Virus record (IMG/VR): IMGVR_UViG_3300045988_081205
Length of the DNA stretch: 64,000 nucleotides
Source: a virus
Strand: one strand, 5' to 3'
The notes below the pieces were generated by a model. It made no database searches. It was given only the letters and a program-made list of their open reading frames with translations, and was not told the DNA's origin. The position numbers and the translations under genes were made by a program. Shown piece by piece: positions 827-59,296 of this stretch. The first letter of the stretch is position 1. Every line of letters starts with the position of its first letter.

Positions 827-914
827 AATGAAAAAGGATGAAAACGGTGAATGGGTGACGCTGAACGAAAAAATTGTGGAGATGAAATGTTGGAAGAAAT
901 TGGAGGTGTAAATA

Positions 915-1262
915 ATGGATACTGTTGAATTTTTGAATGAAGGTACTAGGATGTGTAATAATTATGAAGCATGTGTTGGTTGTCCTATGGAGGAAACAGA
1001 TGATTGCTGTATGGTTAATATGAATCTCAAGCAAATGATAAGTATTGTGGAGCAATGGGCAAAAGAACATCCTATAAAAACAAGGCAGAGCGAATTGCTT
1101 AAGCTATTTCCTGAAGCTAGTGTGCTATATGATGAATATCTAAATATCTGTCCAGCTCAACTTTCAAGTGAATGTCGTGATAAGGAAACTGGTGGATGTT
1201 ATGACCCCGGAATGGATTGTGGCAAATGCAAACGTGATTTTTGGCTAAAAGAAATTGAATGA
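915..1262 (+). CDS. hypothetical Cys-rich protein
   Basis: 115-aa ORF preceded by GGAGGTG. Several Cys pairs. No recognised family. Confidence 0.55.
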   Translation: MDTVEFLNEGTRMCNNYEACVGCPMEETDDCCMVNMNLKQMISIVEQWAKEHPIKTRQSELLKLFPEASVLYDEYLNICPAQLSSECRDKETGGCYDPGMDCGKCKRDFWLKEIE

Positions 1263-1270
1263 GGTGAATG

Positions 1271-1432
1271 ATGACAAATCAAGAAGCTGCCACATTGATA
1301 GTCAAGGAATATGGCAATTATAGAGGAATTTGTATTGAATATAAGCAATTTTCTTATATCAACCCAAATCTATCTGAAGCTATTGCTATGGCTATAGCAG
1401 CATTAAATAAAGAAAATAATAAGGAGGATTAA
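1271..1432 (+). CDS. hypothetical small protein (53 aa)
   Basis: Not in the ORF track (<60 aa). ATG follows GAGGTGA and fills the gap between neighbouring genes in the same orientation. Confidence 0.35.
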   Translation: MTNQEAATLIVKEYGNYRGICIEYKQFSYINPNLSEAIAMAIAALNKENNKED

Positions 1433-1440
1433 GTAAGTAA

Positions 1441-2073
1441 ATGAGTAAAGCAATTATGATTATTGGGGCAAGCGGTTCCGGTAAGACAACTAGCCTAGAG
1501 CATCTTGACCCAAAGCTGACATTTTACATTGATGCAGATGGTAAAGGACTAAGTTGGAAGGGATGGCGCAATCAATATAATAAGACTAATAAGAATTATT
1601 TTGTATGTGATGACCCTAATTCTATTTATAGTCTAATGCAGCAAATCAATGATAAACAGAAGCAGATTAAGTATCTTGTGATTGACACACTGAATGGCTG
1701 TATGGTAGCAGATGAGATGCGCCGAGCTAAGGAAAAGGCGTATGACAAGTGGATGGATTTAGCGCAGAGCGTATATAGCATTGTTGATTTCTCTAATAAG
1801 ATGCGTGATGATCTTACGGTGATTCTCATTGGTCATACTCAGACAAGCGATGATGGATTTACTTGTATGCTCACCAATGGGCGCAAGCTCAATAAGATTT
1901 GTCTTGAAAGCAAGATGACCACTGTGCTACTATCTCGAATCAACGATAATGGCGAATATGTGTTTGAAACAAGAGCAAAGAATAGCACGGCTAAGACCCC
2001 AAGAGGCGCGTTTGAAAAGGATGAAATTCCTAATGATATTATGTTAGTCATTGATGCTCTGAAAGATTTCTAA
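1441..2073 (+). CDS. P-loop ATPase, Sak4-like / AAA_24-type recombination protein
   Basis: Walker A GASGSGKTT at the N-terminus, ~210 aa. Followed by a DUF669-like gene, as is typical for phage Sak4 modules. Confidence 0.65.
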   Translation: MSKAIMIIGASGSGKTTSLEHLDPKLTFYIDADGKGLSWKGWRNQYNKTNKNYFVCDDPNSIYSLMQQINDKQKQIKYLVIDTLNGCMVADEMRRAKEKAYDKWMDLAQSVYSIVDFSNKMRDDLTVILIGHTQTSDDGFTCMLTNGRKLNKICLESKMTTVLLSRINDNGEYVFETRAKNSTAKTPRGAFEKDEIPNDIMLVIDALKDF

Positions 2074-2151
2074 CTACTCCAGCTAAAAAAGCTGAGTAAA
2101 ATATAAACAATCTATTTATTAAAATCAAATTAAAGCGAGGTTAAATTTATT

Positions 2152-2763
2152 ATGAAGCGAATCAATAATTGGGAGAATATTCAGGAAAGCACATCTTTTA
2201 AGCGTCTAACGCCAAATGGCTATATTGTTAAGATTCTCAATGTAGAAGATCATCCTGAAAAGGAATATCTCAAGATTTATTTTGACATCGTAAAGGGCGA
2301 TGATAAGGGTTATTTCAAGAAGCAGTATGACGGCGATACGCGCAAGGAACGCAAATGGCCCAATGCTGGTACATTCATCCGTTCTTATAAGGATTCTGCG
2401 GCATCTATGTTTAAGGGATTTATCAATGCCATTGAAAAGTCCAATAAGGGCTATCAGTGGAATTTTGACGAAAAGACGCTTGTCAATAAGGTCGTTGGTC
2501 TAATTATTGCCGATGAGCAGTATCAGAATCAGAAGGGTCAGGTTCGTGTCCGTAACTATGTCGCGGCCGTTCGCTCTGTTGAGACTATTGAAAAGGACGA
2601 ATATGAAATTCCTGCGCTCAAGGAGCTGACCACCACAAAGACCACAACTGCTCCTGCTAATGACCTAATCCCTGATTTTGGCGATGTGTTTAACACTACA
2701 CCAACCCCTGCTGAATCAGAAAATCCTTGGGATGATTCTGACGAGAATAATCCCTTCATGTAA
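2152..2763 (+). CDS. DUF669-like protein (putative ssDNA-binding partner of Sak4) with acidic C-terminal tail
   Basis: Position directly after the AAA_24-like ATPase. Acidic tail DDSDENNPF resembles SSB tails. Confidence 0.5.
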   Translation: MKRINNWENIQESTSFKRLTPNGYIVKILNVEDHPEKEYLKIYFDIVKGDDKGYFKKQYDGDTRKERKWPNAGTFIRSYKDSAASMFKGFINAIEKSNKGYQWNFDEKTLVNKVVGLIIADEQYQNQKGQVRVRNYVAAVRSVETIEKDEYEIPALKELTTTKTTTAPANDLIPDFGDVFNTTPTPAESENPWDDSDENNPFM

Positions 2764-2772
2764 AAATAATAC

Positions 2773-2801
2773 TTGACAAAAAGTTAATGCTGTGATATAA
2801 T
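2773..2801 (+). promoter_or_regulatory. sigma-A-type early promoter
   Basis: TTGACA 2773-2778, 17-nt spacer, TGaTATAAT ending at 2801. Confidence 0.75.
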
Positions 2802-2814
2802 TACAATAGAGGTT

Positions 2815-2901
2815 GATAAGAAGTTGCAAATTCTTATCATTTGAAGGAAGGTTGCTCGTCTCGACCTTCCTTACTCTACAAATTAAATCTAAGACGAGGA
2901 G
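2815..2901 (+). promoter_or_regulatory. structured 5' leader of HNH gene 2
   Basis: Hairpin 1 at 2815-2838 (GATAAGAA/TTCTTATC). Hairpin 2 at 2844-2872 (AAGGAAGGT/ACCTTCCTT). Loop CTCGTCT (2855-2861) is complementary to AGACGAG (2892-2898), which overlaps the SD GAGGAG. Confidence 0.6.
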
Positions 2902-2909
2902 ATTTTATT

Positions 2910-3473
2910 ATGGAAGAAATTTGGAAACCAGTTAAAGTTAGGGGAGAAGATTTCACAGGATATTATGAAGTTAGCAATTTAGGAAGAATTAAAAAATTGT
3001 CAACATGGAGTTGTGACGGTAAAAGATTTCTAAAAGAGCGGATTATGAAACAAACTCTTGATAAGAAGGGTTATTTGACTGTAAATTTGCAAAAGGGAAG
3101 TCGCCGTTTTACTCGTATATTTGTGCATAGAATAGTAGCAGAGGCATTTATTCCTAATCCAAATGATCTACCTCAAGTTGGGCATAAAGACGATACGGTA
3201 TTAAAGACTAATAACTGTATTGAAAATCTTTATTGGACAACTAACAAAGAAAATGCAAATACAGAAGGAAGAAAACAAAGATTATCTATGTCTCATATGG
3301 GCGCAAAAAATCATGGTGCTAGAGCTGTGATATGTGAAGGCATTACATTTCCAACGATGTCCGATTGCGCTAAACATTATAATATATTTGTTCAAAATAT
3401 ATGTGCGTGGTTAAATGGGAGAGAAAAAATGCCAAACCTATGGATTCAAAGAGGACTAAAAAGAGTTGATTAA
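2910..3473 (+). CDS. free-standing HNH homing endonuclease (NUMOD4-like + HNH_3-like)
   Basis: MEEIWKPV...GYYEVSNLGRIKKL and VHRIVAEAFIPNP...GHKDD...NLYWTTNKEN. The ATG at 2910 is preferred over the track start 2841 because of the SD GAGGAG and the alignment with 152-826. Confidence 0.85.
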   Translation: MEEIWKPVKVRGEDFTGYYEVSNLGRIKKLSTWSCDGKRFLKERIMKQTLDKKGYLTVNLQKGSRRFTRIFVHRIVAEAFIPNPNDLPQVGHKDDTVLKTNNCIENLYWTTNKENANTEGRKQRLSMSHMGAKNHGARAVICEGITFPTMSDCAKHYNIFVQNICAWLNGREKMPNLWIQRGLKRVD

Positions 3474-3499
3474 CGATAAGAATTCATAAAAATATTAAA

Positions 3500-3526
3500 G
3501 GCGGGGCTTGACAATCCCGCCTTTTT
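3500..3526 (+). terminator. intrinsic terminator
   Basis: GGCGGG (3500-3505) / CCCGCC (3516-3521) stem followed by TTTTT. Confidence 0.6.
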
Positions 3527-3536
3527 ATTATATGAT
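3508..3536 (+). promoter_or_regulatory. sigma-A-type promoter whose -35 lies in the terminator loop
   Basis: TTGACA 3508-3513, 17-nt spacer, TATGAT 3531-3536. Confidence 0.5.
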
Positions 3537-3555
3537 AACTGTGAGGTGATGATGC

Positions 3556-4185
3556 TTGAATAGATTTCTATGTGTAGCTCAACTGCAAGAACTGCGAATC
3601 GACCTATATCAGACCCATATGAAAGCCAAATTCAGCGTCATCACTAATCATCAATGCCTTACTATGAGCCAAACATTGAGCCGCAAATGGAATGAGCCGC
3701 AAATCAAATCATGGCTGACAATGGCACAATATATCCATCCACGTATAGACAGCTATATATATGTCAAAAATAAACATTATTATACAATGAAAAAATCTGA
3801 TATACCTACTAGGCTATTGGTATCAGGCAATATCAATGAATGGAAAAAATCATTATATTATAATGTGCAATATTGCCGTATAGTTGAATATAATGCAGCT
3901 GATAGCATGAATATAGAAATGGATGGGCAATGGCTGGATTCATGGAGATTCTTGAATATATGCGGCGATTCACCTAGAGTGTTTACTATCAAGCGTCCTG
4001 ACGGCTGTGAGGGCTGTATATGCCGATTGCGGCTTGAATATGATGCAGGATATAACATAGAGCAAAATCGGGTCATAGCGCATCCTAGCGGTCTTGGTGT
4101 GGTTGATTGCAAGAAAACAGATGCGGTTATGAGCCAAGAAGAAATTGATAAGTGGATGTTAGAATATGAGATAATTTCCTCTTGA
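3556..4185 (+). CDS. hypothetical protein
   Basis: 209-aa ORF (TTG start in the track; true start uncertain). No recognised motif. Confidence 0.5.
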   Translation: MNRFLCVAQLQELRIDLYQTHMKAKFSVITNHQCLTMSQTLSRKWNEPQIKSWLTMAQYIHPRIDSYIYVKNKHYYTMKKSDIPTRLLVSGNINEWKKSLYYNVQYCRIVEYNAADSMNIEMDGQWLDSWRFLNICGDSPRVFTIKRPDGCEGCICRLRLEYDAGYNIEQNRVIAHPSGLGVVDCKKTDAVMSQEEIDKWMLEYEIISS

Positions 4186-4866: not shown

Positions 4867-5123
4867 AACATAAAATGATTGGATGTTCTGAAGAATGCCT
4901 AGAATTTGCCTGTTGCGATTTCTGCATCTATGTTCACCATGATTTTTTCTTTGATAAAGACGGTGATATTGTCCGTGGCGGACCAGTTGGATGTGGATTG
5001 CATGACGATGAGCGTCATCAAGATATCGCTGAAAGCTGTGGTCATTGTCCTGATTTCCATTGTTTTAGAGCACATGAAGATAATATGGTTGTAAAGGAGA
5101 TTGATGATGATGACGTGGTATAG
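4863..5123 (+). CDS. hypothetical Cys/His-rich protein
   Basis: 86-aa ORF, translationally coupled. TAG stop. Confidence 0.5.
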   Translation: MKHKMIGCSEECLEFACCDFCIYVHHDFFFDKDGDIVRGGPVGCGLHDDERHQDIAESCGHCPDFHCFRAHEDNMVVKEIDDDDVV

Positions 5124-12057: not shown

Positions 12058-15000
12058 ATGCAAACAGTAAAATTAACCCCAATGCGCATGATATTCAATA
12101 ACCCTGAATCCAATTTCTCAATTATATCATGCAGCACTAAGGATGAAACAATAGAAATCAACCCTCAATATGGCACAATCAGCCTAAAAGGAACTGGCAT
12201 TGCCGATCTGAAAATGGGGCAATCCATTGATTGTATCATAGAGCCATGTGTGGATGATAAATACAAATACAGCTATAAATTCATTGGCTTTGCTGGATTT
12301 GTAGCTAAAGATGGCAAATTCAACCTAACTGAAAAAGCCGAGCTACAGACATTGCGTAGTTTAATGACTAATGGGCAAGCTGAATCATGTCATGCCGCAT
12401 ATCCTCATTTTGTCAGTATGGTGCTGAATGGTGAAGCCGACAAGCTAGACTACAAAAAAATTCGTGGCGTAGGCAAGGTGTTATTGCCAAGATATATTGA
12501 TAAAATCAAGACGATCAACAAGCGTGTGGAATTTATGGGAGAAACATATGCTTGGGGCATTGAGCATGATGAGGATATAAACAAAATCGCCGCGGCATAT
12601 AAGAACGTATATGGATTCAGCCAAGATATAAATACCAATCCATATGCTATTATGATTAACTTGCTTGAATGGTCATTTGATAGAGCAGATAGGGTGATAA
12701 CTAAGAAAACAGCAAAATGGCTGGATAGCTATGAACGATGTGAGGCGGCTACTATCTATGCTCTAAAGCATAATGAGCTGGACGGCAATACAAGGATGCA
12801 AGCCAAGATGTTGTTTGATATGGTAAAGCGCAAAGCCCCTCAATGCGTTCATCATCTCCTCGATGTTGTGACGAAATCGGCGCAAGTACACTATGACGCT
12901 CCTAGCCAAAACACAGCTCTACAAGTCACATATAGTGCTGAACAGCATATTGCTGATGTTATCAAGAAAAAAATAGCCAATCCACATTACTATCCTATGG
13001 ATTGGCAGAAGTTTACAAGTGTAGACGGTTTAGAGCTGACTGATGAACAAACGCAGATTCTTGAAATGGCTTGTAAACAAGATGTTATGATGCTGACTGG
13101 TTCGGCTGGTTGTGTTGATTGCGATACTGAATTTTTTACTGGTACTGGTTGGAAGCGAATTGCGGATTATCAAGACGGCGACAGGGTGCTTCAGTACAAC
13201 GAGGACGGAACAGCAGAACTTGTAAATCCCATTGCTTATATCAAGAAGACATGCAATACGTTATGGCATTTTGAGACGCTTCGAGGATTAAATCAAACTG
13301 TCTGTGATGATCATAGAATTATATATGAAACAAGAGACGGTGTATTAAAAGAATGTAATATTGAACAACTAAAACAAATGCACTTACCGTCAACCAAGAA
13401 TTTCCAAGGGAGGTTTCTCACAACATTCAACCTTGGTGGTTCTGGTATAGATTTAAATGAATGGCAAATTCGTCTAATGTGCGCGGTTTTGGCAGATGGG
13501 CATTTCAACGCCGGTAATAAAAATAGCACAAGATGTACATTTCATATAAAAAAGCAACGTAAGAAAGATAGACTGATTTATCTTTTCAATAAAAATGGAC
13601 TTGAATATAAAGAACATGAAAGTACAGAAGAAGGATATACTGACTATCATGTGTATGTTCCAAGGAGAGAAAAGCAATTTACAGAGTATTGGTATGGGTG
13701 TTCTAATGAACAATTAAAGATAATTGTAGATGAGGTTGTTTATTGGGATGGATGTATAAGATACACAAAAAATAATACTAAGTATTTAACTTATTGTTCA
13801 TCTATAAAATCAGACGCAGATTTCATTCAATATGCAGCATCCGCGATTGGAATTAGAGCGTCTATAAGCACTTGTAATAGAATTGGTGAAATCAAGCATT
13901 TGAACGGGAAAGAATATATTAGAAAGACAAATGTATATACGGTTCATTTTTCCAACAGAACAAAAGTAGGATTGTGTTCAGATAATAGAAGTAAATGTAC
14001 TAAAACGCCCATAACTCAAGTGCCAACCACTGATGGATATAAATACTGCTTTACAGTACCATCACATATGCTCGTACTAAGAAGAAAAGATTGCATTTTC
14101 ATTACTGGCAACTGTGGCAAAACAACAAGTATGCAAGCACTTGTTAATATGCTAGATAGCAATGGGTACACATATACTCTACTTGCCCCGACAGGAATAT
14201 CTAGCAAAAAATTACGAGAAGCAACGCAAAAAGAAGCGTCCACCATCCATATGTTTTTAACCATGAGTGAGAACCTAGGAGATTATCTAATCATAGATGA
14301 AGCCAGTCAAATTAGCGTCCATTTGCTATCAATGCTATTTGATAAGGTAACAGACCGTACTAAGATAATCTTCATAGCCGACCCATCTCAGCTTGCATCT
14401 ATTGCTTGCGGCAACATTGTTGAGGATATGCTTGATAGCGGCATCGTGCCTGTATGTAACTTGACTAAGGTATTCAGATATAACACATCTGGCATTATTA
14501 CTATAGCTACTGATGTACGAAATGGAGTAAATGACCATCTGACAGATACTTTCACAGATTATAAGTTCATTGAAACTGATACATTAGTAATCAAGCAAAT
14601 TGAGCAAGAATATGCGCGGCTCTTAGCAGATGGATACAGTAAGGATGATGTGCTGATTCTATCTCCATTCAATAAGGGTGATGTTGGCTCATTGGCTATC
14701 AATGCGGCGATTCAAGCCAAATTCAATCCAAATGAATTAAGCAAGGTTGGGCATACTGTCAATGATGTACCTATATATTTCAAAGTTGGCGATAAGGTAA
14801 TCAATAAAAAGAATGAATATGCTATGCCGCTTGTTGATGATGATACGGCTTTTGTAGCAAATGGCGATATTGGCACAGTGATGGAAATTGTGCCTGATGA
14901 AAAAGAGCCATATATGATTGTGCGATATGATTGCGGCGATTGTATAGTAGATAAGGCGCATATCAAGAATACGCTACTTAGTTATTGTGTCAGCATCCAT

Positions 15001-15210
15001 TCAGCGCAAGGTAGCCAAGCAAAGGCTGTGATTGTAGTGATTGATAGAAGCCACGTAAGGATGCTATCGCGCAACTTGTGCTATACAGCGGTATCACGCG
15101 CACAAGAGCGGCTAATATTGATTGGAGATGAGGCGGCTATTCAAGATGGGCTAAAGGTGCAAGAGGAAAAGGAAAGGGATACTTATTTGCGATATTTTTT
15201 AATAAAATAA
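12058..15210 (+). CDS. RecD/Dda-like SF1 DNA helicase precursor containing an intein in the P-loop
   Basis: The Walker A motif is split as GSAG | intein | CGKTTS. C-terminal SIHSAQGSQ and YTAVSRAQERL helicase motifs. Confidence 0.8.
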   Translation: MQTVKLTPMRMIFNNPESNFSIISCSTKDETIEINPQYGTISLKGTGIADLKMGQSIDCIIEPCVDDKYKYSYKFIGFAGFVAKDGKFNLTEKAELQTLRSLMTNGQAESCHAAYPHFVSMVLNGEADKLDYKKIRGVGKVLLPRYIDKIKTINKRVEFMGETYAWGIEHDEDINKIAAAYKNVYGFSQDINTNPYAIMINLLEWSFDRADRVITKKTAKWLDSYERCEAATIYALKHNELDGNTRMQAKMLFDMVKRKAPQCVHHLLDVVTKSAQVHYDAPSQNTALQVTYSAEQHIADVIKKKIANPHYYPMDWQKFTSVDGLELTDEQTQILEMACKQDVMMLTGSAGCVDCDTEFFTGTGWKRIADYQDGDRVLQYNEDGTAELVNPIAYIKKTCNTLWHFETLRGLNQTVCDDHRIIYETRDGVLKECNIEQLKQMHLPSTKNFQGRFLTTFNLGGSGIDLNEWQIRLMCAVLADGHFNAGNKNSTRCTFHIKKQRKKDRLIYLFNKNGLEYKEHESTEEGYTDYHVYVPRREKQFTEYWYGCSNEQLKIIVDEVVYWDGCIRYTKNNTKYLTYCSSIKSDADFIQYAASAIGIRASISTCNRIGEIKHLNGKEYIRKTNVYTVHFSNRTKVGLCSDNRSKCTKTPITQVPTTDGYKYCFTVPSHMLVLRRKDCIFITGNCGKTTSMQALVNMLDSNGYTYTLLAPTGISSKKLREATQKEASTIHMFLTMSENLGDYLIIDEASQISVHLLSMLFDKVTDRTKIIFIADPSQLASIACGNIVEDMLDSGIVPVCNLTKVFRYNTSGIITIATDVRNGVNDHLTDTFTDYKFIETDTLVIKQIEQEYARLLADGYSKDDVLILSPFNKGDVGSLAINAAIQAKFNPNELSKVGHTVNDVPIYFKVGDKVINKKNEYAMPLVDDDTAFVANGDIGTVMEIVPDEKEPYMIVRYDCGDCIVDKAHIKNTLLSYCVSIHSAQGSQAKAVIVVIDRSHVRMLSRNLCYTAVSRAQERLILIGDEAAIQDGLKVQEEKERDTYLRYFLIK
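13111..14112 (+). mobile_element. intein (334 aa) with LAGLIDADG homing-endonuclease domain
   Basis: Starts CVDCDTEFF (block A-like) and ends FITGN followed by Cys +1. Internal LMCAVLADGHF and IVDEVVYWDGC LAGLIDADG-like motifs. Removal restores GSAGCGKTT. Confidence 0.8.
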
Positions 15211-15214
15211 TATA

Positions 15215-15243
15215 TTGACAAATATCTATATATGTGATATAAT
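15215..15243 (+). promoter_or_regulatory. sigma-A-type early promoter
   Basis: TTGACA 15215-15220, 17-nt spacer, TGaTATAAT ending at 15243. Confidence 0.75.
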
Positions 15244-15257
15244 ATAAATAAGGGTAA

Positions 15258-15336
15258 ATGGAAGGTGTACAACTTCTATTCTTTAAGGAGAACGCTTATC
15301 TCGTTCTCCTACCTTAATATTTTCTAAGATAAGGAG
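15258..15336 (+). promoter_or_regulatory. structured 5' leader of HNH-like gene 3
   Basis: Hairpin 1 at 15258-15279 (ATGGAAG/CTTCTAT). Hairpin 2 at 15287-15309 (GGAGAACG/CGTTCTCC). Loop CTTATCT (15295-15301) is complementary to AGATAAG (15327-15333), which overlaps the SD AAGGAG. Confidence 0.6.
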
Positions 15337-15347
15337 AAATATGTGTT

Positions 15348-16019
15348 ATGAGTAAATTCAAAAATTTGACAGGAATGAGATTTGGGAAACTAACAGCGGT
15401 TAAAATAGTAAAAAATTGTGAGCATAAGTGTAAAAGTGTAATTTGGCAATGCAAATGTGATTGCGGAAATATAGTGAACGTTAGAAGTAGTAATTTAATA
15501 AACGGACATACAAAATCCTGTGGATGTATAAGAAAAGAAATAATCATGAACAGAGACAAAGAACGAGCGATTCATAATGATTGTAACTCGAGGCTTTATA
15601 GAATTTGGCATGGTATGAAAAATAGATGTAATAATCCAAACGCTTACAACTATAAAAATTATGGTGGTAGAGGTATTACGATTTGTCCAGAATGGGAAGA
15701 ATTTATTCCATTTAGAGAATGGTCCAACAGCAACGGTTATGCAGACAATCTTACTATTGATAGAATTGACGTCAATGGAAATTATTGCCCTGAAAATTGT
15801 AGATGGGCTGATATAAAGACCCAAAATAACAATACCACTAGAAACAGATTGCTAACAGCGTTTGGAGAAACAATGAATGTTGCTCAGTGGAGTGAAAAGG
15901 TAGGTATAAAAAGAGGAGTTATATATACTAGAATCGATACTTATAAATGGGATGTGGAAAAAGCTCTAACAACACCAGTTGAGCAAAGAAAGCCTAGAAT
16001 TAAAGGAGATGCTGATTAA
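15348..16019 (+). CDS. putative free-standing homing endonuclease (HNH/AP2-associated family)
   Basis: RLYRIWHGMKNRCNNP..YKNYGGRGITICPEW and IDRIDVNGNYCPENCRWADIKTQNNN motifs. Own promoter and a leader like the two NUMOD4-HNH genes. Confidence 0.6.
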   Translation: MSKFKNLTGMRFGKLTAVKIVKNCEHKCKSVIWQCKCDCGNIVNVRSSNLINGHTKSCGCIRKEIIMNRDKERAIHNDCNSRLYRIWHGMKNRCNNPNAYNYKNYGGRGITICPEWEEFIPFREWSNSNGYADNLTIDRIDVNGNYCPENCRWADIKTQNNNTTRNRLLTAFGETMNVAQWSEKVGIKRGVIYTRIDTYKWDVEKALTTPVEQRKPRIKGDAD

Positions 16020-49093: not shown

Positions 49094-50671
49094 TTATTCT
49101 AATGAATCTCGGCTTGCTTCGCCACTTTCGGTAAGTGATGTTTCTGACTGACGGGGTCTACCACCCTCGTTATCTGAGCCGCCCTTGGTTGTATTGGTAT
49201 TTTTCAAGAGCTGTGTATATTTATCAATCCAACCGGTATATTTACTTTCAGCCATCATTGCTTCAAATACTTGTGGTTGATAGCCCGATACAGATGCCCA
49301 TGTCTGCATAGGTAGAACAATGCCAGAATCAGCCATTTTTTTCACTTTATCAAATCGAGCTTCACGCTCAAATGGGTAGTTAGACCCGTCGAAGATAAAT
49401 TTCCACTTGTATTTCTTTGTTAGCTGATTGACATAAAATTCTAGGAAATTGCTAAACTGTGGATATAGCGGCTTCATAGTCTGGTACATGTCATTAAGTC
49501 CAGCCTCAATCTCAGCGTTGGACTGTCTATCAGAGCTATAAATAACACGGCTCACACCAGAACCAACACCAGCAGATGTAGCAAGTTGAGTTGAATACAT
49601 ATCTGTATTCTTATCCTCAAACTGGTAGAACTTAATATTTTCAAGCGGCATTGCGGCAAGTTTTGACAATGAGCCAAGACCAGCCTTTGCCTTCTGCATA
49701 AATCCACCTAGCGTCTTTGGGTCAATAGCAAACTGATTCGCTTTAGTACCAGATTTAGCCGAATCAAATAGACGAATTTCACCAGCTAGAATAGCATAGG
49801 CTGACGCAATATCCTTGTTATACTGCAACTGAGCAATATCATCATTAGCAATGGCATTCTTCAGAAATGGAGCTAAAAATGGCGTATTATTAAATGTGCT
49901 AGGATTCCACTTAAATACCCATGCACCATCACTAGGTGATGTTTGCGTCCACATAGCATATGCTCCATTGCGTCTATTTAGTGGGTTTGTAGGGCGATAA
50001 TTTTTGAACGCTTCTTCCTCAGAGCCAAATACGCGCTGATAATATTTCTTAAATGCTGGGTCAAACCCATTGATGTCTACACCAGCTTGCAGGAAATAGC
50101 TCATGTCAAAATCAAACAACATGCCCTTTTCCCAATATCCAGTAAGTAGACATCTATCTTGTGGCAAAATCTGTAGGGCGAATTTCATTCCTTTGTTGCC
50201 CCACTTCGTCTTTCTGAACCAAGTGAAATATGTTTCATGCGTCACAATCTGTGCTATAACTTTACCAAATTCGGCCTTATAATCAAATTTGTTCAAAAAA
50301 TCATATACGCGCCGCTTATCCTCTTGGTATGCGCTTGATTCATAATCACTCTGAGTAAAAGCATTGATACAAACAGGCTGTAGATCAAATGATAGAGCGT
50401 TACAATATGCTTGTAGAGTTCTGGCAAATATCATGTCCCAGAATTTCATATATTCCATATAGCCCTGAATTTGCTCTGAATTTTCCTTATATTCAGCAAG
50501 AGCCTTGCGGATTTTATCAGAGCTTGGGGTTTCTGGATTGTTGTTCAAACTCTGCAATAGTTGATTACTCAACATTGGTGACCAAAAGCCAAACTGGTCA
50601 TAAGCATATAACGCCTGTGCAAACTCTGTTACAGCTTGAGCCTGTTCAAATGTTACTAGCGGTTCTGCCAA
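49094..50671 (-). CDS. portal protein
   Basis: 525 aa. First large ORF after the large terminase. Acidic C-terminus. TTG start after AAGGAGGG. Confidence 0.6.
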   Translation of the reverse strand: MAEPLVTFEQAQAVTEFAQALYAYDQFGFWSPMLSNQLLQSLNNNPETPSSDKIRKALAEYKENSEQIQGYMEYMKFWDMIFARTLQAYCNALSFDLQPVCINAFTQSDYESSAYQEDKRRVYDFLNKFDYKAEFGKVIAQIVTHETYFTWFRKTKWGNKGMKFALQILPQDRCLLTGYWEKGMLFDFDMSYFLQAGVDINGFDPAFKKYYQRVFGSEEEAFKNYRPTNPLNRRNGAYAMWTQTSPSDGAWVFKWNPSTFNNTPFLAPFLKNAIANDDIAQLQYNKDIASAYAILAGEIRLFDSAKSGTKANQFAIDPKTLGGFMQKAKAGLGSLSKLAAMPLENIKFYQFEDKNTDMYSTQLATSAGVGSGVSRVIYSSDRQSNAEIEAGLNDMYQTMKPLYPQFSNFLEFYVNQLTKKYKWKFIFDGSNYPFEREARFDKVKKMADSGIVLPMQTWASVSGYQPQVFEAMMAESKYTGWIDKYTQLLKNTNTTKGGSDNEGGRPRQSETSLTESGEASRDSLE

Positions 50672-50913
50672 ATTTCGCCCTCCTTTCTTTATTTTATTGT
50701 TTATATATTAGAGCAGTTAGATTATGGACTTCATTAACGTATGCCAAAGTTCATTGAGCTACTTGTCCTCCCTATCCGCTCGTTTTATATTTTTGAGTGT
50801 TTTTGTTTTCAGCTTTTTGATTAAACCTAAGTTGGAACTTGGATTCCACACAACCCTAATAGCACCTCCACGGCAACATACCAACATAGCAGCCGCTTCA
50901 TAGGTAAGTCATA

Positions 50914-52758
50914 TCACCAGACAAGTTGAATAGAATCTATATCAAACTCATCTTCTTGTAACTGTTGCTGCCATGCGTTCTCAATTAAATCAATAATGTA
51001 ATTACCATACATAATGGTTACAATTCTATCCTTTGTGCCTGTGCGCGGTTCTTCTAGTTTAATTTTATCCTGCTTAATAACCGTCTTTAGATTAACAGCC
51101 TCTATAACCATCATATCAGTTTGACCATATGGCTCAAGCTGATTAGCTAATTCTTCAGCGGTATATTGATAATATTCACCGCTATCCGTTAGTTCGTTCT
51201 GATAATCTTGCATAGAAATAAGGAATTTCATATTGTTGGTTTCAAGTTGTTTACGCAATGATAACCAACCGCTACTGTTTAATTCAGGTGTGCCAATAAT
51301 CGGTATCAAACATGGTACAGCATTTTTATCAACTGTGCGGTTATGATAATCGTCTATCTTAGCTTTAGATACAACCTGATATTTATCAGCCAATCCAAAT
51401 CCGCGCGAATCCCATCTTGCGCCCAAATCGGGTCGTGGTAATGGTTCTGTAAGGTGGTTTGCTATTACCTCACCACCACTACGCGAATCGAATAGACAAT
51501 AATCTGCATCATATACCCATTTAAGGTATCTAAATCTATCAGATGCACCGATTGTATCAGATGCGTCATGACCCTCTATATAATCAACATGACGCTCGAA
51601 TCTATTCTTTTTACTGTCCCAATGAGCCGACATAAGAGTAATAATTGTATTATCGTTCTTTGTACAACCAGTGGTGTTTGCAAATGCCAAGTCCATTGAC
51701 AGTATGCGTATCTCATCCTCTTTCTTTTCTGGGAAATCAGGTTGTTCGCCAGCAAAGAATTGTAATGCAGTAGGTGGACGGAAACAATGCTCAATAATTT
51801 GGTTCTCTTTGAATGACTTTAGATTAAAGAACGCATCATCGCCCTCTGAAATCATCTCGTTCAAATCTTCCATTCTGAAGTCCATTTCGCCGCCAGCCTT
51901 ATCATTCCAATAGTCAGCCCATGTCTTAAACCCATTATCAATAACCATAAATATATCACCAGCAAAAATATTACATCTTACTTTGGTGTCGGTAAATATA
52001 CGAGTAAATGTCTTTTTGAACAATAGCCAGAACCACTCAAACTTATATCTGGCAGATGTGATATAGATATGTTGACATTCCTCTTTCCAACGAGGATTAT
52101 TACCATATACAGGGTTACTAAGATATTTGGCTTGTCTTGGATGCGCCATCTTCTCAAAGACGGAATCGACCATACCTTTTTTGAGCAAACGGGCTTCTTC
52201 GTATGTAAGAATTGTTGCTCTTGGCCCACGAGAGCTATCTTGGCATGGTAATACACGCAAAGTAGAACCGTTAAGCTTATTCTCTATTCTATAACCATCT
52301 TCTGGTTTAGTGATAACCAAATATTCGTGCTCATACATATATAAGAGATATGGCGATAATTTTTTAATCAATTCATCCCTTATTTTATCTTCAACCATCT
52401 TGTTCGCCTGTGCAACAGTTGATGATGTAATTACCGCCTCTGTATATGGATAAAGATTCATCTTTACAATATTACCTAGACCAACGATAAAAGTTTTAGA
52501 TAAGCCACGACAACATATTGCGAAGAACACATCTGATATGCCCATCAGATATATCATTATCATCTGAAATGGGCGCAACTTGATACCAAGAACTAAATCA
52601 ACATATATATGCCAATTTCGGCGTAACTAAAATAAAGTCAGCCACTCTATAGCATTTTCCTCTTTCTGCGCATCTTTCATTGCATTTTCTTTTGCTTTTG
52701 TTGTAATTAGGTGGTTTCCAAGGAACTTGCGTCTCAAGCCCCCCATCTGACTTTTCAT
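50914..52758 (-). CDS. terL: terminase large subunit, interrupted by one in-frame TAG (52627-52629)
   Basis: The segment YVDLVLGIKLRPFQ...CCRGLSKT (Walker A-like) ...ILTYEEA (Walker B-like) ...SMDLAFANT (nuclease Asp) contains no start codon between the TAG and the TTG at 52578. An ATG at 52758 with SD GGTGGTGA lies 43 codons upstream in the same frame. Confidence 0.7.
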
Positions 52759-52774
52759 TCTATATCACCACCTA

Positions 52775-53602
52775 TCATCTCTTTTGGTCTGAGGGCAAAT
52801 CTGGATATTCGCGCGTCCCCCCAACCAAATTCTTACAACATCTCAAAATATCTTTCCATGTCAGCTCAAATCCACTAAAATCCTTATACTTATTCAAGTC
52901 TTCACATTCACACGGTTTTGTATTCTCAATATTCCATGCCATGCGTTCTATGAATTTTCCAGTATCACTCTGCTTGTTTTCCTTAAATTGGTCTAGTTTT
53001 AGCACCTTCATCAATTTAAGAATTTCATCGCCAGCATCCTTATCTGTTGGGTCTTTGAACTTGCGTAGATTAGCTTGGCACAGATTTCTATACGTCATCT
53101 CTTTAGCTGTGTCCATATCAAGAATTTCGTCAGTGTATCGTTCAAATATATCATCAAGCCACTGATATTCCCATTCTTCATAATCAGCGCCCCACTGACG
53201 ATTCCATCTTGCTTTAAGCGCCACCTCATCTGTTTCTCCTTTAGCTACATCGCCCAAATCCTTGAAATTAGACAGCTCCATATCACTATCCCAAACGCCA
53301 GTTAATTTATCAGGAGATGTAGATAGATATGTATGATACAACATAAATAGACTAGGCTTTTTTCCCTTAGCCGCCTTTTCTAGCGTATCAAGACAAGCAG
53401 TATATTCAGCACGTCTCATAGGAATACCAGTCTGCATACAGGTTGACCATAATGCCGCGCCTTGATCTTTAGTGGATTCAAGAGCTTGTTTATATAGCTC
53501 AGTTACACATGATTTGCATGGTTTAATATATTCACCCGTTTTGATTGGGCTTTTATAGAATTGGCTATCTTGCTTTTCTTTGCCACAATATGGGCAAAAC
53601 AT
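52775..53602 (-). CDS. putative terminase small subunit / packaging-associated Zn-ribbon protein
   Basis: 275 aa with N-terminal CPYCG...CKSC. The functional call rests only on its position immediately upstream of terL. Confidence 0.3.
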   Translation of the reverse strand: MFCPYCGKEKQDSQFYKSPIKTGEYIKPCKSCVTELYKQALESTKDQGAALWSTCMQTGIPMRRAEYTACLDTLEKAAKGKKPSLFMLYHTYLSTSPDKLTGVWDSDMELSNFKDLGDVAKGETDEVALKARWNRQWGADYEEWEYQWLDDIFERYTDEILDMDTAKEMTYRNLCQANLRKFKDPTDKDAGDEILKLMKVLKLDQFKENKQSDTGKFIERMAWNIENTKPCECEDLNKYKDFSGFELTWKDILRCCKNLVGGTREYPDLPSDQKR

Positions 53603-54509
53603 ATTCTCATTCCTTTCCGTTCCGTTTATTTTCCTATAAATATGACGAAGCAGCCAAGATTGCTCTCGGCTGCTTCGTATTTGTTAAGGTTCAATATTCA
53701 ATTAAACAACAGTTCCCATTGAGTTGGGCTTATTGTAGATATGAGCCGATTGGCTCTGACCACCATCCTTTCTTTAATTATGCTTCGGATAAACCAGTGG
53801 ATAATTCAAGAGAATAGTGACCTCCTTTCGGATATTCATAGCCGCCAATGAGTAGTAGCGACAGGCAGTTTCAGTATATACCTAGATACAAACATTTCGT
53901 TAAAGCTCCATTTATAAAGCGCCATCGAGCATCTAGCGCCACTCACTGTTATGTTTTATTATTTTACAAATGCGACATATTCTTGCCGTGTCGCCGGGCG
54001 TTATGGTGCAATGGGTCTTAGATGCCATCACATCTCGCCTTTGCATCGTTCTAATGGCAATACGGTTTTCATTGTTGTCATATGGTATACCGCAAACCTT
54101 CGATTAACGTCCACATATTGCCGAAAGACAACCCGGTTCTATGCTTCATACGCTCGTATAACACACCTGTTGCTATACGCCTATCGTCTAGGATAGGATT
54201 TTGCAAGAGCCGCCATTAACGACTCCAAGAACTCCTTGCACGCATGGTACATGAGATGAATTGTCATATCTCACCACAGTATATGACGCGCTCGTATTAG
54301 GATCTGCTGAATTGCAGATTCACGGCGAAGATATTCAACTCTGCTAGGTGGGTCAATCGCCCCGCAAGCATGATTAACACAGCCATAGCTATCACCTAGC
54401 AGAGAATGAATCAATTTAAGGGTGGTAGCGCCATTTGCAACTGACGCTACCGATAAAATAAATTCTGTCGGATGACAGCGAAAAGCGTTCAGGCTTTTCC
54501 TCTAGTGTA
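53603..54509 (-). ncRNA. ORF-free, hairpin-dense ~0.9 kb island (candidate large structured RNA; strand uncertain)
   Basis: Stops are frequent in all six frames. Visibly richer in G+C than the flanks. At least 10 local 5-12 bp stems, e.g. 54339-54350/54393-54404 (12 bp), 54424-54430/54445-54451 (7 bp) and 53645-53655/53668-53678 (11 bp). Confidence 0.35.
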
Positions 54510-56707: not shown

Positions 56708-59296
56708 CTACTGTTTTAACATATCCCCCGTGCGGACAGGTGGGGCTTCACGTGATTCAGTACGCCGCTGATTATCTGCCTTCTTGTAACATTCCTCTGA
56801 GCAGTAATGTTGACATACATCTCGCGGCTTAAACCGCTTGCCACAAATGGAGCAGATTGGATTAAGTTGCGCCGTATTGATTCTCAAATTCTCTACAATC
56901 GTCCAACCAAAACAAGCCCACAACATTTTCTTATTGCTTGATTTTTTGACAGTATATAGATAAGCCACCAAGCTATTTACCACAACATCTAGCGGCTCGT
57001 TGCTATATTCCACTATATCTTGTGCAATGCGGCGATATTTATATAAATCGTCTTCATTGATATGCGGGTCATCGCCATAGTCAAATCGGCGCTGATTCCA
57101 CATCCACCAATTATACCTCTCTATGATTGGGGAATTTTCTCTAGTTGTATAATCAACTGATTTATTTATCAACATCGTCCAGTCGAATTTCCCAATCTTG
57201 TTATTATAGCGAATTCGGGAAGTAGGGATTTTAGCCGATATACGATTCATCGTGGAATTGTTTGGAGGCTCTACTTGTGTATCTGGGTCTTTGTCTTTAG
57301 CATAGATGAAAAAGTTGGGTAATTTTGATTTAGTATATTTTTTAATAATATCAGCAATTTCTTTTGGAGGTTCACTTTTCCACAACGTTTTCGCAAAATC
57401 AATAATTTGATTGTTCTTCATTGTGAGCCAAGCAATAACTCTAATTTGCTCCTCAGTCATTTTACCGCCATTGGCGTTTTTTACCTTCGATATAGAGTTA
57501 CTTATCGGGCCAATCGACCCACCTGTATATGCGGTGCTTACGCCTTCATACAATCTATCCGCATCAATAATACCCCCACGAGCCTTTTTTAAGTCATATG
57601 ACAACGGCACAATTCCTTGCATATTACGCTTCGCTACGGTTGTTAGTGTTCTATCTTTTACAACCAAACTAATATCCCCATCAAAATCTTGCTGCAATAT
57701 ACGGCTAATCATATCGTGACAACTGAAGTAAACGCATTTTGTTCCGCCTAACCATTTATCGGTTAGTTCATTCCGCTTGTTAATTCTAACTGCGTGTTCT
57801 TGATACAAGTGTGGACTTCTCAAACAATCAAGCTCATCGCCATCTTTGAATTGATTGGTGTAAACCTCTCCATTCTCAAGTATGCCGATTGGGAATTGCT
57901 CACCTTTGAACAACCACTCACAAAATGCCACAGGGTCAGGAGAAATAAACAGATATTTACCGTTAATTCTCAATCTGCCGCCTCTTGCTTGCTTTACCAA
58001 GCTTTTTTTTGTTTGTTTCAACAACTCCCGGTTATACGCATCTTTGAATAATTCTGGATATATTGTCAACGCTTCTTGCATGGCTGATTTTGTTTGATTG
58101 TATTCAGTCGCGCCTAATAGTCTCATAGTAGTTTGATAGTCTCTCCCGACGCTATCAATTTCATCTGCTGTCTTGGCAATAAGCCGCTCAATCTCATTGT
58201 CTGTCATATCACTTAAAGATTGAAGCATCTGATAATTGATTCGCGCTTTTGGTATATAATCTTCCTCAACTTTGCAACAACCAAAGTAACAACCATAACT
58301 TTTGAAATTAGACTTGTAACACAACCAAGATGGATAAAACTTATACAGCTTGAACATTGACTTCGTTAGGATATACTGAATATCATCCTCAAGAATCTTC
58401 CATTCTTTACCATATATATCAGTTACAGCCCAATCGTCAGCGGTGAAATATTCTTTGAGCCATCCTCTAAAGTCGAAATAAGATACCAATCCTTTTATCC
58501 ACGGCGCTCGAACAATTTGTGTCTTAAATCCGGGCTTACAACACATACCCCAGCCATCTGTCTCAGCTATAATCGTCTCAGACGTTTTTCGCGTAATGCT
58601 GTAATCTGTACAATCAATAAAATCTGATTCAGCTATAACCGGCATTTCAAAATCATCAACTACAATACAGCGATCTATATCAAAGTTCTCAATTCTGTCG
58701 GTTGCAGACGCCATAAGACTCTTATAACTCAATAGCTTGTTTTCATTCATGCCGCCCAGCGCATTGATTGAATCAATGGTCAGTCCGCACATAAGAGTTT
58801 GCTCAACAGCTAAATAATCTTTTTCGCAAACGGCCATAAATCGCTTTGTGCGTATCATGCCCGCTCCACATGAATAGAAAATGTAATGTTCACCATTGTA
58901 ATTAAACCCGTTGTGAATAATGCTGTTTAGCACTTCAAAAAAGAACACATTGACAATGATGATTTTGTCACTTCGCTCAAATGTCTTAATGCCAAGACTA
59001 CGAGTCAATTCAGAGCAGAACAGGTTAATAATTGTCTTGTCTGTTACCGCATCTGGATTGAGTTCTCTTGTAATATTATCCTCAAGCGATTTTCTCAGCA
59101 ACTCAACAAGTTCATCTTTATGCTTCTTGATAACACGGTTAATTGATGAAACGCGCCATTTTCGATTTTGACCATCCTTCTCGCGCATTCTCAAGGCATA
59201 TAGCTTGACAAGTCGATTATGTATTGCTTGTTCCTTCGGCGTATAAAAAGCATCTGTTGCTACAGAAGGTATATAACAGAACTCTGTCAATGGCAC
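56708..59296 (-). CDS. YonO-like single-polypeptide RNA polymerase candidate (two double-psi beta-barrel type)
   Basis: RSPHLY (57806-57820 encodes RSPHL) followed ~40 aa later by DFDGD (57674-57688), the beta-prime-type Mg-binding signature. An upstream RAPWIKGLVS (58490-58510 encodes RAPWIKG) resembles the beta-type barrel. C-terminal Zn ribbon. GTG start. Confidence 0.6.
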   Translation of the reverse strand: MPLTEFCYIPSVATDAFYTPKEQAIHNRLVKLYALRMREKDGQNRKWRVSSINRVIKKHKDELVELLRKSLEDNITRELNPDAVTDKTIINLFCSELTRSLGIKTFERSDKIIIVNVFFFEVLNSIIHNGFNYNGEHYIFYSCGAGMIRTKRFMAVCEKDYLAVEQTLMCGLTIDSINALGGMNENKLLSYKSLMASATDRIENFDIDRCIVVDDFEMPVIAESDFIDCTDYSITRKTSETIIAETDGWGMCCKPGFKTQIVRAPWIKGLVSYFDFRGWLKEYFTADDWAVTDIYGKEWKILEDDIQYILTKSMFKLYKFYPSWLCYKSNFKSYGCYFGCCKVEEDYIPKARINYQMLQSLSDMTDNEIERLIAKTADEIDSVGRDYQTTMRLLGATEYNQTKSAMQEALTIYPELFKDAYNRELLKQTKKSLVKQARGGRLRINGKYLFISPDPVAFCEWLFKGEQFPIGILENGEVYTNQFKDGDELDCLRSPHLYQEHAVRINKRNELTDKWLGGTKCVYFSCHDMISRILQQDFDGDISLVVKDRTLTTVAKRNMQGIVPLSYDLKKARGGIIDADRLYEGVSTAYTGGSIGPISNSISKVKNANGGKMTEEQIRVIAWLTMKNNQIIDFAKTLWKSEPPKEIADIIKKYTKSKLPNFFIYAKDKDPDTQVEPPNNSTMNRISAKIPTSRIRYNNKIGKFDWTMLINKSVDYTTRENSPIIERYNWWMWNQRRFDYGDDPHINEDDLYKYRRIAQDIVEYSNEPLDVVVNSLVAYLYTVKKSSNKKMLWACFGWTIVENLRINTAQLNPICSICGKRFKPRDVCQHYCSEECYKKADNQRRTESREAPPVRTGDMLKQ

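Follow-up and report, generated by a model that had tools for sequence, protein, structure and literature searches.

An in-frame stop codon in the terminase gene

How can a phage make a full-length large terminase (TerL) when a stop codon stands near the beginning of the gene? The question is raised by a 64,000-nucleotide stretch of the IMG/VR virus record IMGVR_UViG_3300045988_081205 (the window, meaning the whole stretch that was analyzed), in which the terL gene on the minus strand is interrupted by an in-frame TAG. A first-pass annotation of the sequence had described this arrangement and had offered four explanations: an amber suppressor tRNA, programmed read-through, a nonsense mutation in a defective prophage or laboratory amber mutant, and a sequencing error. 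Comparison with related phages points elsewhere, and we consider it probable that the TAG marks a site where ribosomes hop over a short insert (a "stop-hop", or programmed translational bypass) in the TerL mRNA of an SPbeta/PMBT24-like gut phage. The features on which the argument turns are the following (nt, nucleotides; aa, amino acids).

52765-52772, minus strand: Shine-Dalgarno (SD)-like sequence GGTGGTGA, 6 nt 5' of the TerL ATG and kept in relatives in the alignment
52630-52758, minus strand: TerL segment 1, ATG plus 42 codons (43 aa), MKSQMGGLRRKFLGNHLITTKAKENAMKDAQKEENAIEWLTLF
52624-52629, minus strand: proposed coding gap of 6 nt, TAG (52629-52627) plus TTA (52626-52624), missing from uninterrupted homologues
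50914-52623, minus strand: TerL segment 2, from the proposed resume codon CGC (52623-52621) to the stop at 50916-50914; 569 aa
52564-52578, minus strand: LRPFQ motif, lying 5' of the first ATG and including the TTG chosen by the open reading frame (ORF) finder
52492-52512, minus strand: Walker-A-like CRGLSKT of the TerL ATPase, from the translation; homologues have (C/S)RGLSK(T/S)

Direct reading of the DNA confirmed what had been described, namely an ATG at 52758, 43 sense codons, the TAG at 52629-52627 and the same frame onward, and also that the 16 codons from the TAG to the TTG at 52578 include no ATG, GTG or TTG. The C-terminal part of segment 1 is …KEENAIEWLTLF, and its last codon, TTT (Phe) at 52632-52630, is the proposed take-off site. 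Past the TAG the frame reads LRRNWHIYVDLVLGIKLRPFQMIMIY… and runs into a 554-aa ORF (TTG 52578 to the stop at 50914). This TTG is not a conserved start, since it is replaced by the synonymous TTA in the relative L004. The LRPFQ motif is presumably the adenine-binding Q motif of TerL proteins. In a codon-usage scan, the TAG at 52629-52627 was the sole TAG in the window parting two coding segments of the same frame.

Identity of the gene

The predicted fold of a homologue, tblastn matches and gene context together indicate that the gene is a large terminase. We searched with the read-through protein by tblastn and matched 83 phage records; the best match, at 47% identity and unbroken over query residues 21-614, was the large terminase annotated in Enterocloster phage PMBT24, and further matches came from Thomasclavelia phages and from SPbeta-like Bacillus and Staphylococcus phages. 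PHROG 15503 covers residues 18-236 of the read-through protein. Because both the tblastn and the PHROG alignments cross the TAG, and the N-termini of uninterrupted terminases are homologous to it, the 43-codon ORF is the genuine N-terminus of TerL, as the first-pass annotation had supposed. Its core inference, that full-length TerL needs non-standard decoding at the TAG, is thereby upheld. Full-length homologues have 607-617 aa, and the window protein would have 614 aa by read-through or 612 aa (43 + 569) by hopping.

For an uninterrupted homologue (P0008), the AlphaFold2 model, which has low confidence at residues 1-46, was matched by Foldseek to the TerL proteins T4 gp17, Sf6 gp2, HK97 and D6E (E 6e-10 to 1e-6; nuclease-domain TM-score 0.64-0.70). 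The terL neighbors are YonG-, YonJ-, YonD- and YonB-like genes and a portal gene (PHROG 2739), the latter directly downstream of terL. A Pfam search of the read-through protein gave no match, sequence and profile searches against the PDB returned nothing, and neither did megablast against phage genomes. In PHROGs this TerL is divided into separate N- and C-terminal families. In the Enterocloster phages CB457P1 and CB473P1-3, terL was matched in three pieces, which together span about 3.3 kb and enclose an annotated "intron-associated endonuclease 1"; the gene is likewise interrupted in these phages, by intron or homing endonuclease gene elements.

Insert alleles in related phages

In uninterrupted homologues the protein reads …W-x-T-[LFV]-[FYWL]/R-R-N-W…, where the slash marks the junction, and its length there is invariant in more than 100 loci or proteins. 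The insert has one exact position, falling at a bond whose two codons directly adjoin in every uninterrupted homologue. We found eleven gap variants of four lengths (6, 7, 8 and 9 nt) in about 42 distinct contigs, and variants were found again in independent ENA and JGI assemblies. Written in the order take-off, skipped nucleotides, landing, resume, the alleles are as follows.

6 nt, window lineage: TT[TC], TAG, TTA, CGN
6 nt: TT[CT], TAG, TTC, CGT AGG
6 nt, TGA version: TTC, TGA, TTC, CGG CGA
7 nt: TAT, TAG C, TAT, CGC; and TAT, TAG G, TAT, CGC
8 nt: TAT, TAG TT, TAC, CGG
9 nt: TTC, TAG NNA, TTC, CGN, where NNA is CAA, CTA, CGA, TGA or TAA

The codon after the Phe or Tyr take-off is TAG in all alleles but one, which has TGA. 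In five of the six gap classes the landing codon is the same as the take-off codon or synonymous with it (Phe/Phe or Tyr/Tyr), the matched pairs being TTC/TTC, TTT/TTC, TAT/TAT and TAT/TAC. The non-identical pairs (TAT/TAC and TTT/TTC) argue for tRNA matching over simple duplication. The two arginines after the gap are encoded variously, as CGC CGA, CGA CGA, CGT AGG, CGT AGA, CGA AGA, CGC CGC or CGG CGC.

Two groups of alleles are informative about how the gap is treated. The 7- and 8-nt alleles put the N-terminal ORF out of frame with the TerL body (L029 and L057), and therefore read-through cannot join those ORFs. Within the 9-nt gap the middle triplet is free to vary and is itself a stop in two of the five variants; this freedom, the second stops and the TGA allele indicate that the gap is undecoded and that amber-specific suppression fails. 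In all alleles a hop is predicted to yield a protein with exactly the length of uninterrupted TerL.

Among close relatives with near-identical TerL bodies, interrupted alleles are intermingled with uninterrupted ones. In the 7-nt clade the first ~43 codons and the insert behave as a separate block, and in the uninterrupted L162, which has 86% DNA identity over the TerL body, the first ~43 codons cannot be aligned with those of the interrupted alleles. A supposed further 7-nt allele in L193 (TAC TAG A TAT) was rejected as a false positive of the regular expression, since ACT AGA TAT encodes TRY in one continuous frame.

Proposed bypass

We infer bypassing because the stop follows a Phe or Tyr codon, a matched codon (in the window lineage a two-of-three match) stands before the point of resumption and the length of the product is kept. 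In the window, a ribosome starting at ATG 52758 would translate 43 codons and come to hold peptidyl-tRNA-Phe on UUU 52632-52630 in the P site, with the slowly decoded UAG in the A site. The anticodon would then un-pair, the mRNA would slide by 6 nt, and the tRNA would re-pair on UUA 52626-52624 by a two-out-of-three match, for which the sister lineages offer a perfect UUC. Decoding would restart at CGC 52623 to give a product of 612 aa, …EWLTLF/RRNWHIY…, collinear with the uninterrupted homologues, and the peptides expected at the junction would be AIEWLTLFR and NWHIYVDLVLGIK. Terminating ribosomes would release only the 43-aa peptide. The TAG site probably also lowers the output of TerL; a low output may be sufficient for a catalytic packaging enzyme or may even be useful.

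The arrangement agrees with what is expected of a bypass site. A stop codon lies directly 3' of the take-off codon in every allele, and the gap (6 nt in the window, 6-9 nt in relatives) is absent from homologues in which the flanking codons are adjacent. That the gap is undecoded is apparent in the relatives, from non-triplet lengths and internal stops, the gap of the window itself being 6 nt. When the window was scanned for other combinations of a stop, a matched codon and a downstream ORF, only ordinary junctions of adjacent genes were found.

We also considered +1 frameshifting for the 7-nt alleles. Re-pairing would be poor (UAU to AUU), two residues would be added, and the in-frame and 8-nt alleles would be left unexplained. 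It was dropped because a single mechanism is preferred for all alleles. A small CAUAUAUAUG hairpin was likewise rejected as a hop signal, as it occurs in both allele types and is forced by the NWHIY codons.

Authenticity of the stop codon and maintenance of the gene

Finding one premature stop in an essential gene would usually point to a pseudogene, and the first-pass annotation had accordingly listed a nonsense mutation, a decaying prophage, a laboratory amber mutant and a sequencing error. The stop itself was found in ~15 independent assemblies of the window lineage (ENA, Logan and IMG/VR), with synonymous variation on both sides of it (TTT/TTC before, CGC/CGA/CGG after), which rules out a sequencing error. 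The 21 codons right after the insert in the interrupted lineages show pS 0.81 and pN 0.049 (synonymous and nonsynonymous differences per site), a pN/pS of 0.06, and the next 100 codons are looser, at 0.16. Given a pN/pS of 0.06, these 21 codons must be translated in frame from the first one, which excludes both downstream re-initiation and pseudogenization.

The interrupted form is also abundant. A protein search, with 706 homologues, returned "short" terminases of 524-560 aa alongside full-length ones, and one cluster of them, P0002, has 1080 member sequences at 98% identity. The DNA of the short-terminase clusters carries the same ORF of 42 or 43 codons, a stop and then the continuing frame. 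The interrupted contigs are of complete size (80-97 kb), one of them with a coverage of 188. Comparison with relatives shows that TerL homologues do not begin at the position corresponding to 52578. In the window we found no further disrupted genes, and five further lineages have analogous inserts at the same site. Taken with this evidence, an inactivating mutation, a laboratory amber or an assembly error in a defective element can for practical purposes be dismissed.

One database entry deserves a caution. P0001, a 614-aa protein from L005 (a contig of Logan SRR23525290), has Gln at the position of the stop and could be taken for an ancestor with CAG. This was rejected, as the DNA has TAG and the gene was called with a code in which TAG is Gln; the entry is flagged "translates_to_query: no". 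Entries made with alternative codes, such as P0001, can thus pass for sense-codon ancestors.

Homing endonuclease genes at the insert

All 9-nt alleles, and only these, have a gene with HNH and three NUMOD3 overlapping the ATG of terL (L008, L009-12, L026, L035, L036, L037 and metagenome copies). The inserted gene, of 300-315 aa, lies between the YonG-like gene and terL, and with its HNH motif, three NUMOD3 and an I-HmuI-like NUMOD domain its product is, by domain content, a free-standing homing endonuclease. In an uninterrupted close relative (L156) YonG abuts terL and there is no endonuclease gene at that place.

By analogy with a known system (T4 gene 60, discussed below), we hypothesize that the conserved …TTY/CGN AAT TGG… DNA is the target of the endonuclease and that small insertions there would give resistance, and that only insertions skipped by the ribosome would be compatible with TerL function. 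The insert would then act as protection against a homing endonuclease at the DNA level, and hence would be invisible in the protein.

A leader of ~90 nt with 77-79% identity is common to two endonuclease genes, the HNH gene upstream of terL and, in another phage, an unrelated GIY-YIG/NUMOD3 gene on the downstream side of terL (L156 5838-5929 versus L009 8854-8941, with equivalents in L008, L035 and L036). The similarity suggests a common promoter or leader module used by different homing endonucleases.

Alternative explanations

An amber suppressor tRNA that gates late expression, which the first-pass annotation had put foremost, is not supported. ARAGORN found no tRNA gene in the window. We covered the rest of the genome through a relative (IMG/VR 3300045988_079215), which is 98% identical over an 8.6-kb overlap with the window, following its sequence until it rejoined window positions 902-3550 and closed the circle. 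No tRNA with a CUA anticodon was present in the window or in the remainder of this relative, and the remainder has only a tRNA-Ile(UAU). Other relatives have tRNAs for Leu(CAA), Val(UAC), Met(CAU) and Thr(UGU). A scan of species-representative genomes gave two matches only, both to metagenome-assembled genomes. TAG terminates nine of the 73 well-scoring ORFs of the window, and the earlier remark that it ends other genes, including those at 5121, 22218, 22546, 32162 and 32556, was right. Reading TAG, TGA or TAA as sense gave no general gain in ORF length in the window, and no pair of same-frame coding segments other than that in terL was parted by a TAG in these 64 kb. Genome-wide reassignment of the stop codon was rejected, since only this one in-frame TAG occurs in 64 kb and TAG otherwise serves for normal termination. 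These observations speak against the suppressor as well, and so do sister alleles with TGA, with the tandems TAG-TGA and TAG-TAA, and with 7- and 8-nt gaps, the latter being beyond the reach of any suppressor.

Read-through at a single site came nearest, among the explanations first proposed, to what we observed, in that the TAG is passed by the ribosome; the comparative evidence instead favors bypassing, which had not been considered. If a near-cognate or suppressor tRNA of the host or the phage decoded UAG at low frequency, with TTA read as Leu, the product would be a TerL of 614 aa with F-x-L-RR at the junction. The gap of the window is indeed in frame (6 nt) and its TTA is unlike the Phe take-off codon, a gene caller with TAG as Gln yields the 614-aa P0001 from such a contig, and stop-recoded gut phages are known. 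On the other side stand the absence of a tRNA-CUA described above, the single in-frame TAG among normal TAG terminators, and sister alleles that could not be read in this way (7- and 8-nt gaps, TAG-TGA, TAG-TAA, and TGA for TAG). In addition, more than 100 uninterrupted homologues keep the length of the junction unchanged, which suggests that an addition of two residues would not be neutral. We therefore regard read-through as unlikely. Less likely again is a split terminase, in which the 43-aa peptide and a body re-initiated at TTG 52578 or ATG 52563 would cooperate, or the N-terminus would be dispensable. Gene callers do annotate a 43-aa ORF and an ORF of 543-560 aa, the tandem stops (TAG TGA and TAG TAA) resemble efficient termination, and split phage enzymes beside homing endonucleases are known. 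However, the 16-20 codons that lead from the stop up to the first possible start contain no start themselves and are strongly constrained by purifying selection, beginning right at the codon next to the gap; the TTG is TTA in L004. The conserved LRPFQ, upstream of Walker A, lies in the segment before the internal ATG, and no SD-like sequence precedes this ATG in the DNA of the window.

Several points weigh against the stop-hop and must be set beside the evidence for it. That evidence is entirely comparative, and the window allele taken by itself, with its in-frame gap and TTA landing, would be compatible with read-through of UAG (F-x-L-RR). In the window lineage the landing codon TTA (Leu) differs from the take-off TTY and matches tRNA-Phe at two of three positions. 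No conserved RNA structure and no clear internal SD specific to interrupted alleles emerged when minimum free energy folds of the 60 nt on either side of the junction were compared between ten interrupted and four uninterrupted alleles, whereas T4 gene 60 relies on signals of this kind for efficient bypass. Synthetic stop-hops are inefficient, and the adequacy of hopping for an essential gene is assumed. If the inserts arose by a small duplication, this could account for part of the match between the flanking codons. The window and the alleles of 6, 7 and 8 nt have no adjacent endonuclease gene, and the YonG-like gene abuts terL there, so that the immunity rationale is indirect for these lineages; where the insert stands without an endonuclease beside it, the gene may have been lost or resistance may have been selected independently.

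Comparison with known recoding systems

The systems described in the literature as making use of bypassing are very few, namely T4 gene 60 and its homologues, the byps of Magnusiomyces mitochondria and the candidate Hau3-type terminases (PMC5009743, PMC10732093), and our literature search found nothing on stop-hops in the terminases of gut or SPbeta-like phages. The closest parallel in geometry is artificial. Synthetic stop-hops in Escherichia coli used matched codons flanking a stop, with nine nucleotides specifying one amino acid (PMC5009743, its reference B54), and natural in-frame stop-hops were not known as of 2016, although they may hide among presumed cases of read-through (PMC5009743). 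The TTC TAG TTC and TTC TGA TTC alleles have the same geometry as the synthetic sites, but those were engineered, whereas the terL sites occur naturally in an essential gene, are conserved and come in versions of 6, 7, 8 and 9 nt. The synthetic constructs are reportedly those of Weiss, Dunn, Atkins and Gesteland in 1987.

In T4 gene 60 a bypass gap of 50 nt neighbors mobA and reportedly shields the site against MobA (bioRxiv 10.1101/2022.08.31.505936). The terL sites resemble it in that the insert is missing from homologues and, in the 9-nt alleles, an HNH-family homing endonuclease is encoded just upstream. On the other hand, the gaps here are 6-9 nt rather than 50, the gene is for a terminase and not a topoisomerase, the sequences are not homologous, and no counterpart of the gene 60 signals (take-off stem-loop, internal SD and nascent peptide) was identified at terL. 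The window lineage also differs in having no endonuclease gene adjacent. The terL site may thus work like gene 60, and yet it is not a member of the gene 60 family.

The terminases of Streptomyces phage Hau3, StrepC.1 and a S. catenulae prophage are candidates for bypassing of 7 or 10 nt, with mass-spectrometric support in E. coli (PMC10732093). They share with the terL sites short non-coding blocks at points that are contiguous in homologues, and conserved junctions. Their A-site trigger, however, is the rare sense codon UUA, with a proposed sensing of the host tRNA(bldA), whereas it is a stop (UAG or UGA) here; moreover, all their inserts shift the frame and their hosts are actinomycetes, while several of the inserts reported here are in frame and are found in Firmicutes-type gut phages. 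The byps of Magnusiomyces capitatus occupy 81 positions of the mitochondrial genome, and their take-off and landing codons are sometimes two-out-of-three matches (PMC5009743). These too are short inserts that are skipped, with an imperfect codon match comparable to the TTT-to-TTA of the window, but they depend on specialized mitochondrial ribosomes and an unassigned A-site codon. Byps are GC-rich mobile inserts of 27-55 nt. Finally, gut phages in which TAG encodes Gln ("code 15") resemble this one, a human-gut phage with a late gene that has TAG in frame, and a gene caller did give Gln in P0001. They differ from the present case, with its single site, no phage suppressor tRNA, TAG as a terminator and sister alleles incompatible with such a code.

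Other features of the window and its relatives

Next to terL, the Rfam "drum" RNA (RF02958) was found at 50792-50906 on the minus strand (54.2 bits, the gathering score being 43; matched over its full length, 1-112), within the 240 nt that separate the terL stop at 50914 from the portal start at 50671. On the other side, the YonG-like gene and the YonJ-like exonuclease gene are ~900 nt apart (53603-54509), with no ORF of at least 100 aa on either strand and no Rfam match in between. The part at ~53,600-54,260 aligns to L111 at 91-96% identity with small rearrangements, and the remainder to 54,509 is unaligned. This stretch could have a regulatory role, encode an uncharacterized RNA or be what is left of a decayed gene.

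A free-standing homing endonuclease gene is also present in the window, at 152-826 on the plus strand, with NUMOD4, HNH_3, NUMOD3 and an I-TevI DNA-binding domain; it is mobile, since its relatives are scattered in unrelated phage contigs. Four tandem ORFs of similar size (203-210 aa) lie at 1441-4185. The minus-strand gene at 56708-59296 encodes an 862-aa protein whose relatives have weak or strong matches to PF05183 (RdRP), and which is likely the YonO-type single-subunit RNA polymerase of SPbeta-like phages. In the lineage with 77% identity (L006 and L007), an IS605 OrfB/TnpB (Cas12f-like) gene is inserted among the head genes at 14244-15365; the window has no such gene at the equivalent place. 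The tRNA set outside the window is small and variable, with Ile(UAU) almost always present and one copy of 91-95 nt; examples are found at 14306-14398 and 16147-16220 of L117 and in L112, L119-L124 and L130-L155.

Implications

In conclusion, we lean towards the view, somewhat less firmly than towards the hop itself, that these terminase genes are the first natural family of short stop-hops. A widespread group of SPbeta-like phages of the human gut would make the essential TerL by bypassing inserts of 6-9 nt that begin with a stop, and the inserts would be homing-endonuclease immunity scars or parts of a cassette, repeatedly placed at one conserved site and tolerated because they are translationally invisible. 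If this is true, the logic of T4 mobA and gene 60 would extend to minimal gaps without elaborate RNA signals. The allelic series at one site of one protein, with eleven gap sequences, four lengths, two stops and two tRNA species, would amount to a natural mutational analysis of what the bacterial ribosome requires for hopping. There are also consequences for annotation, as the terminase is split or truncated by gene callers in more than 1000 database entries, or rescued with the wrong code as in P0001, and an isolated in-frame stop in a phage gene need not mean reassignment of the code. If the link with the HNH endonuclease holds, conflict with selfish elements can repeatedly drive recoding in essential genes.

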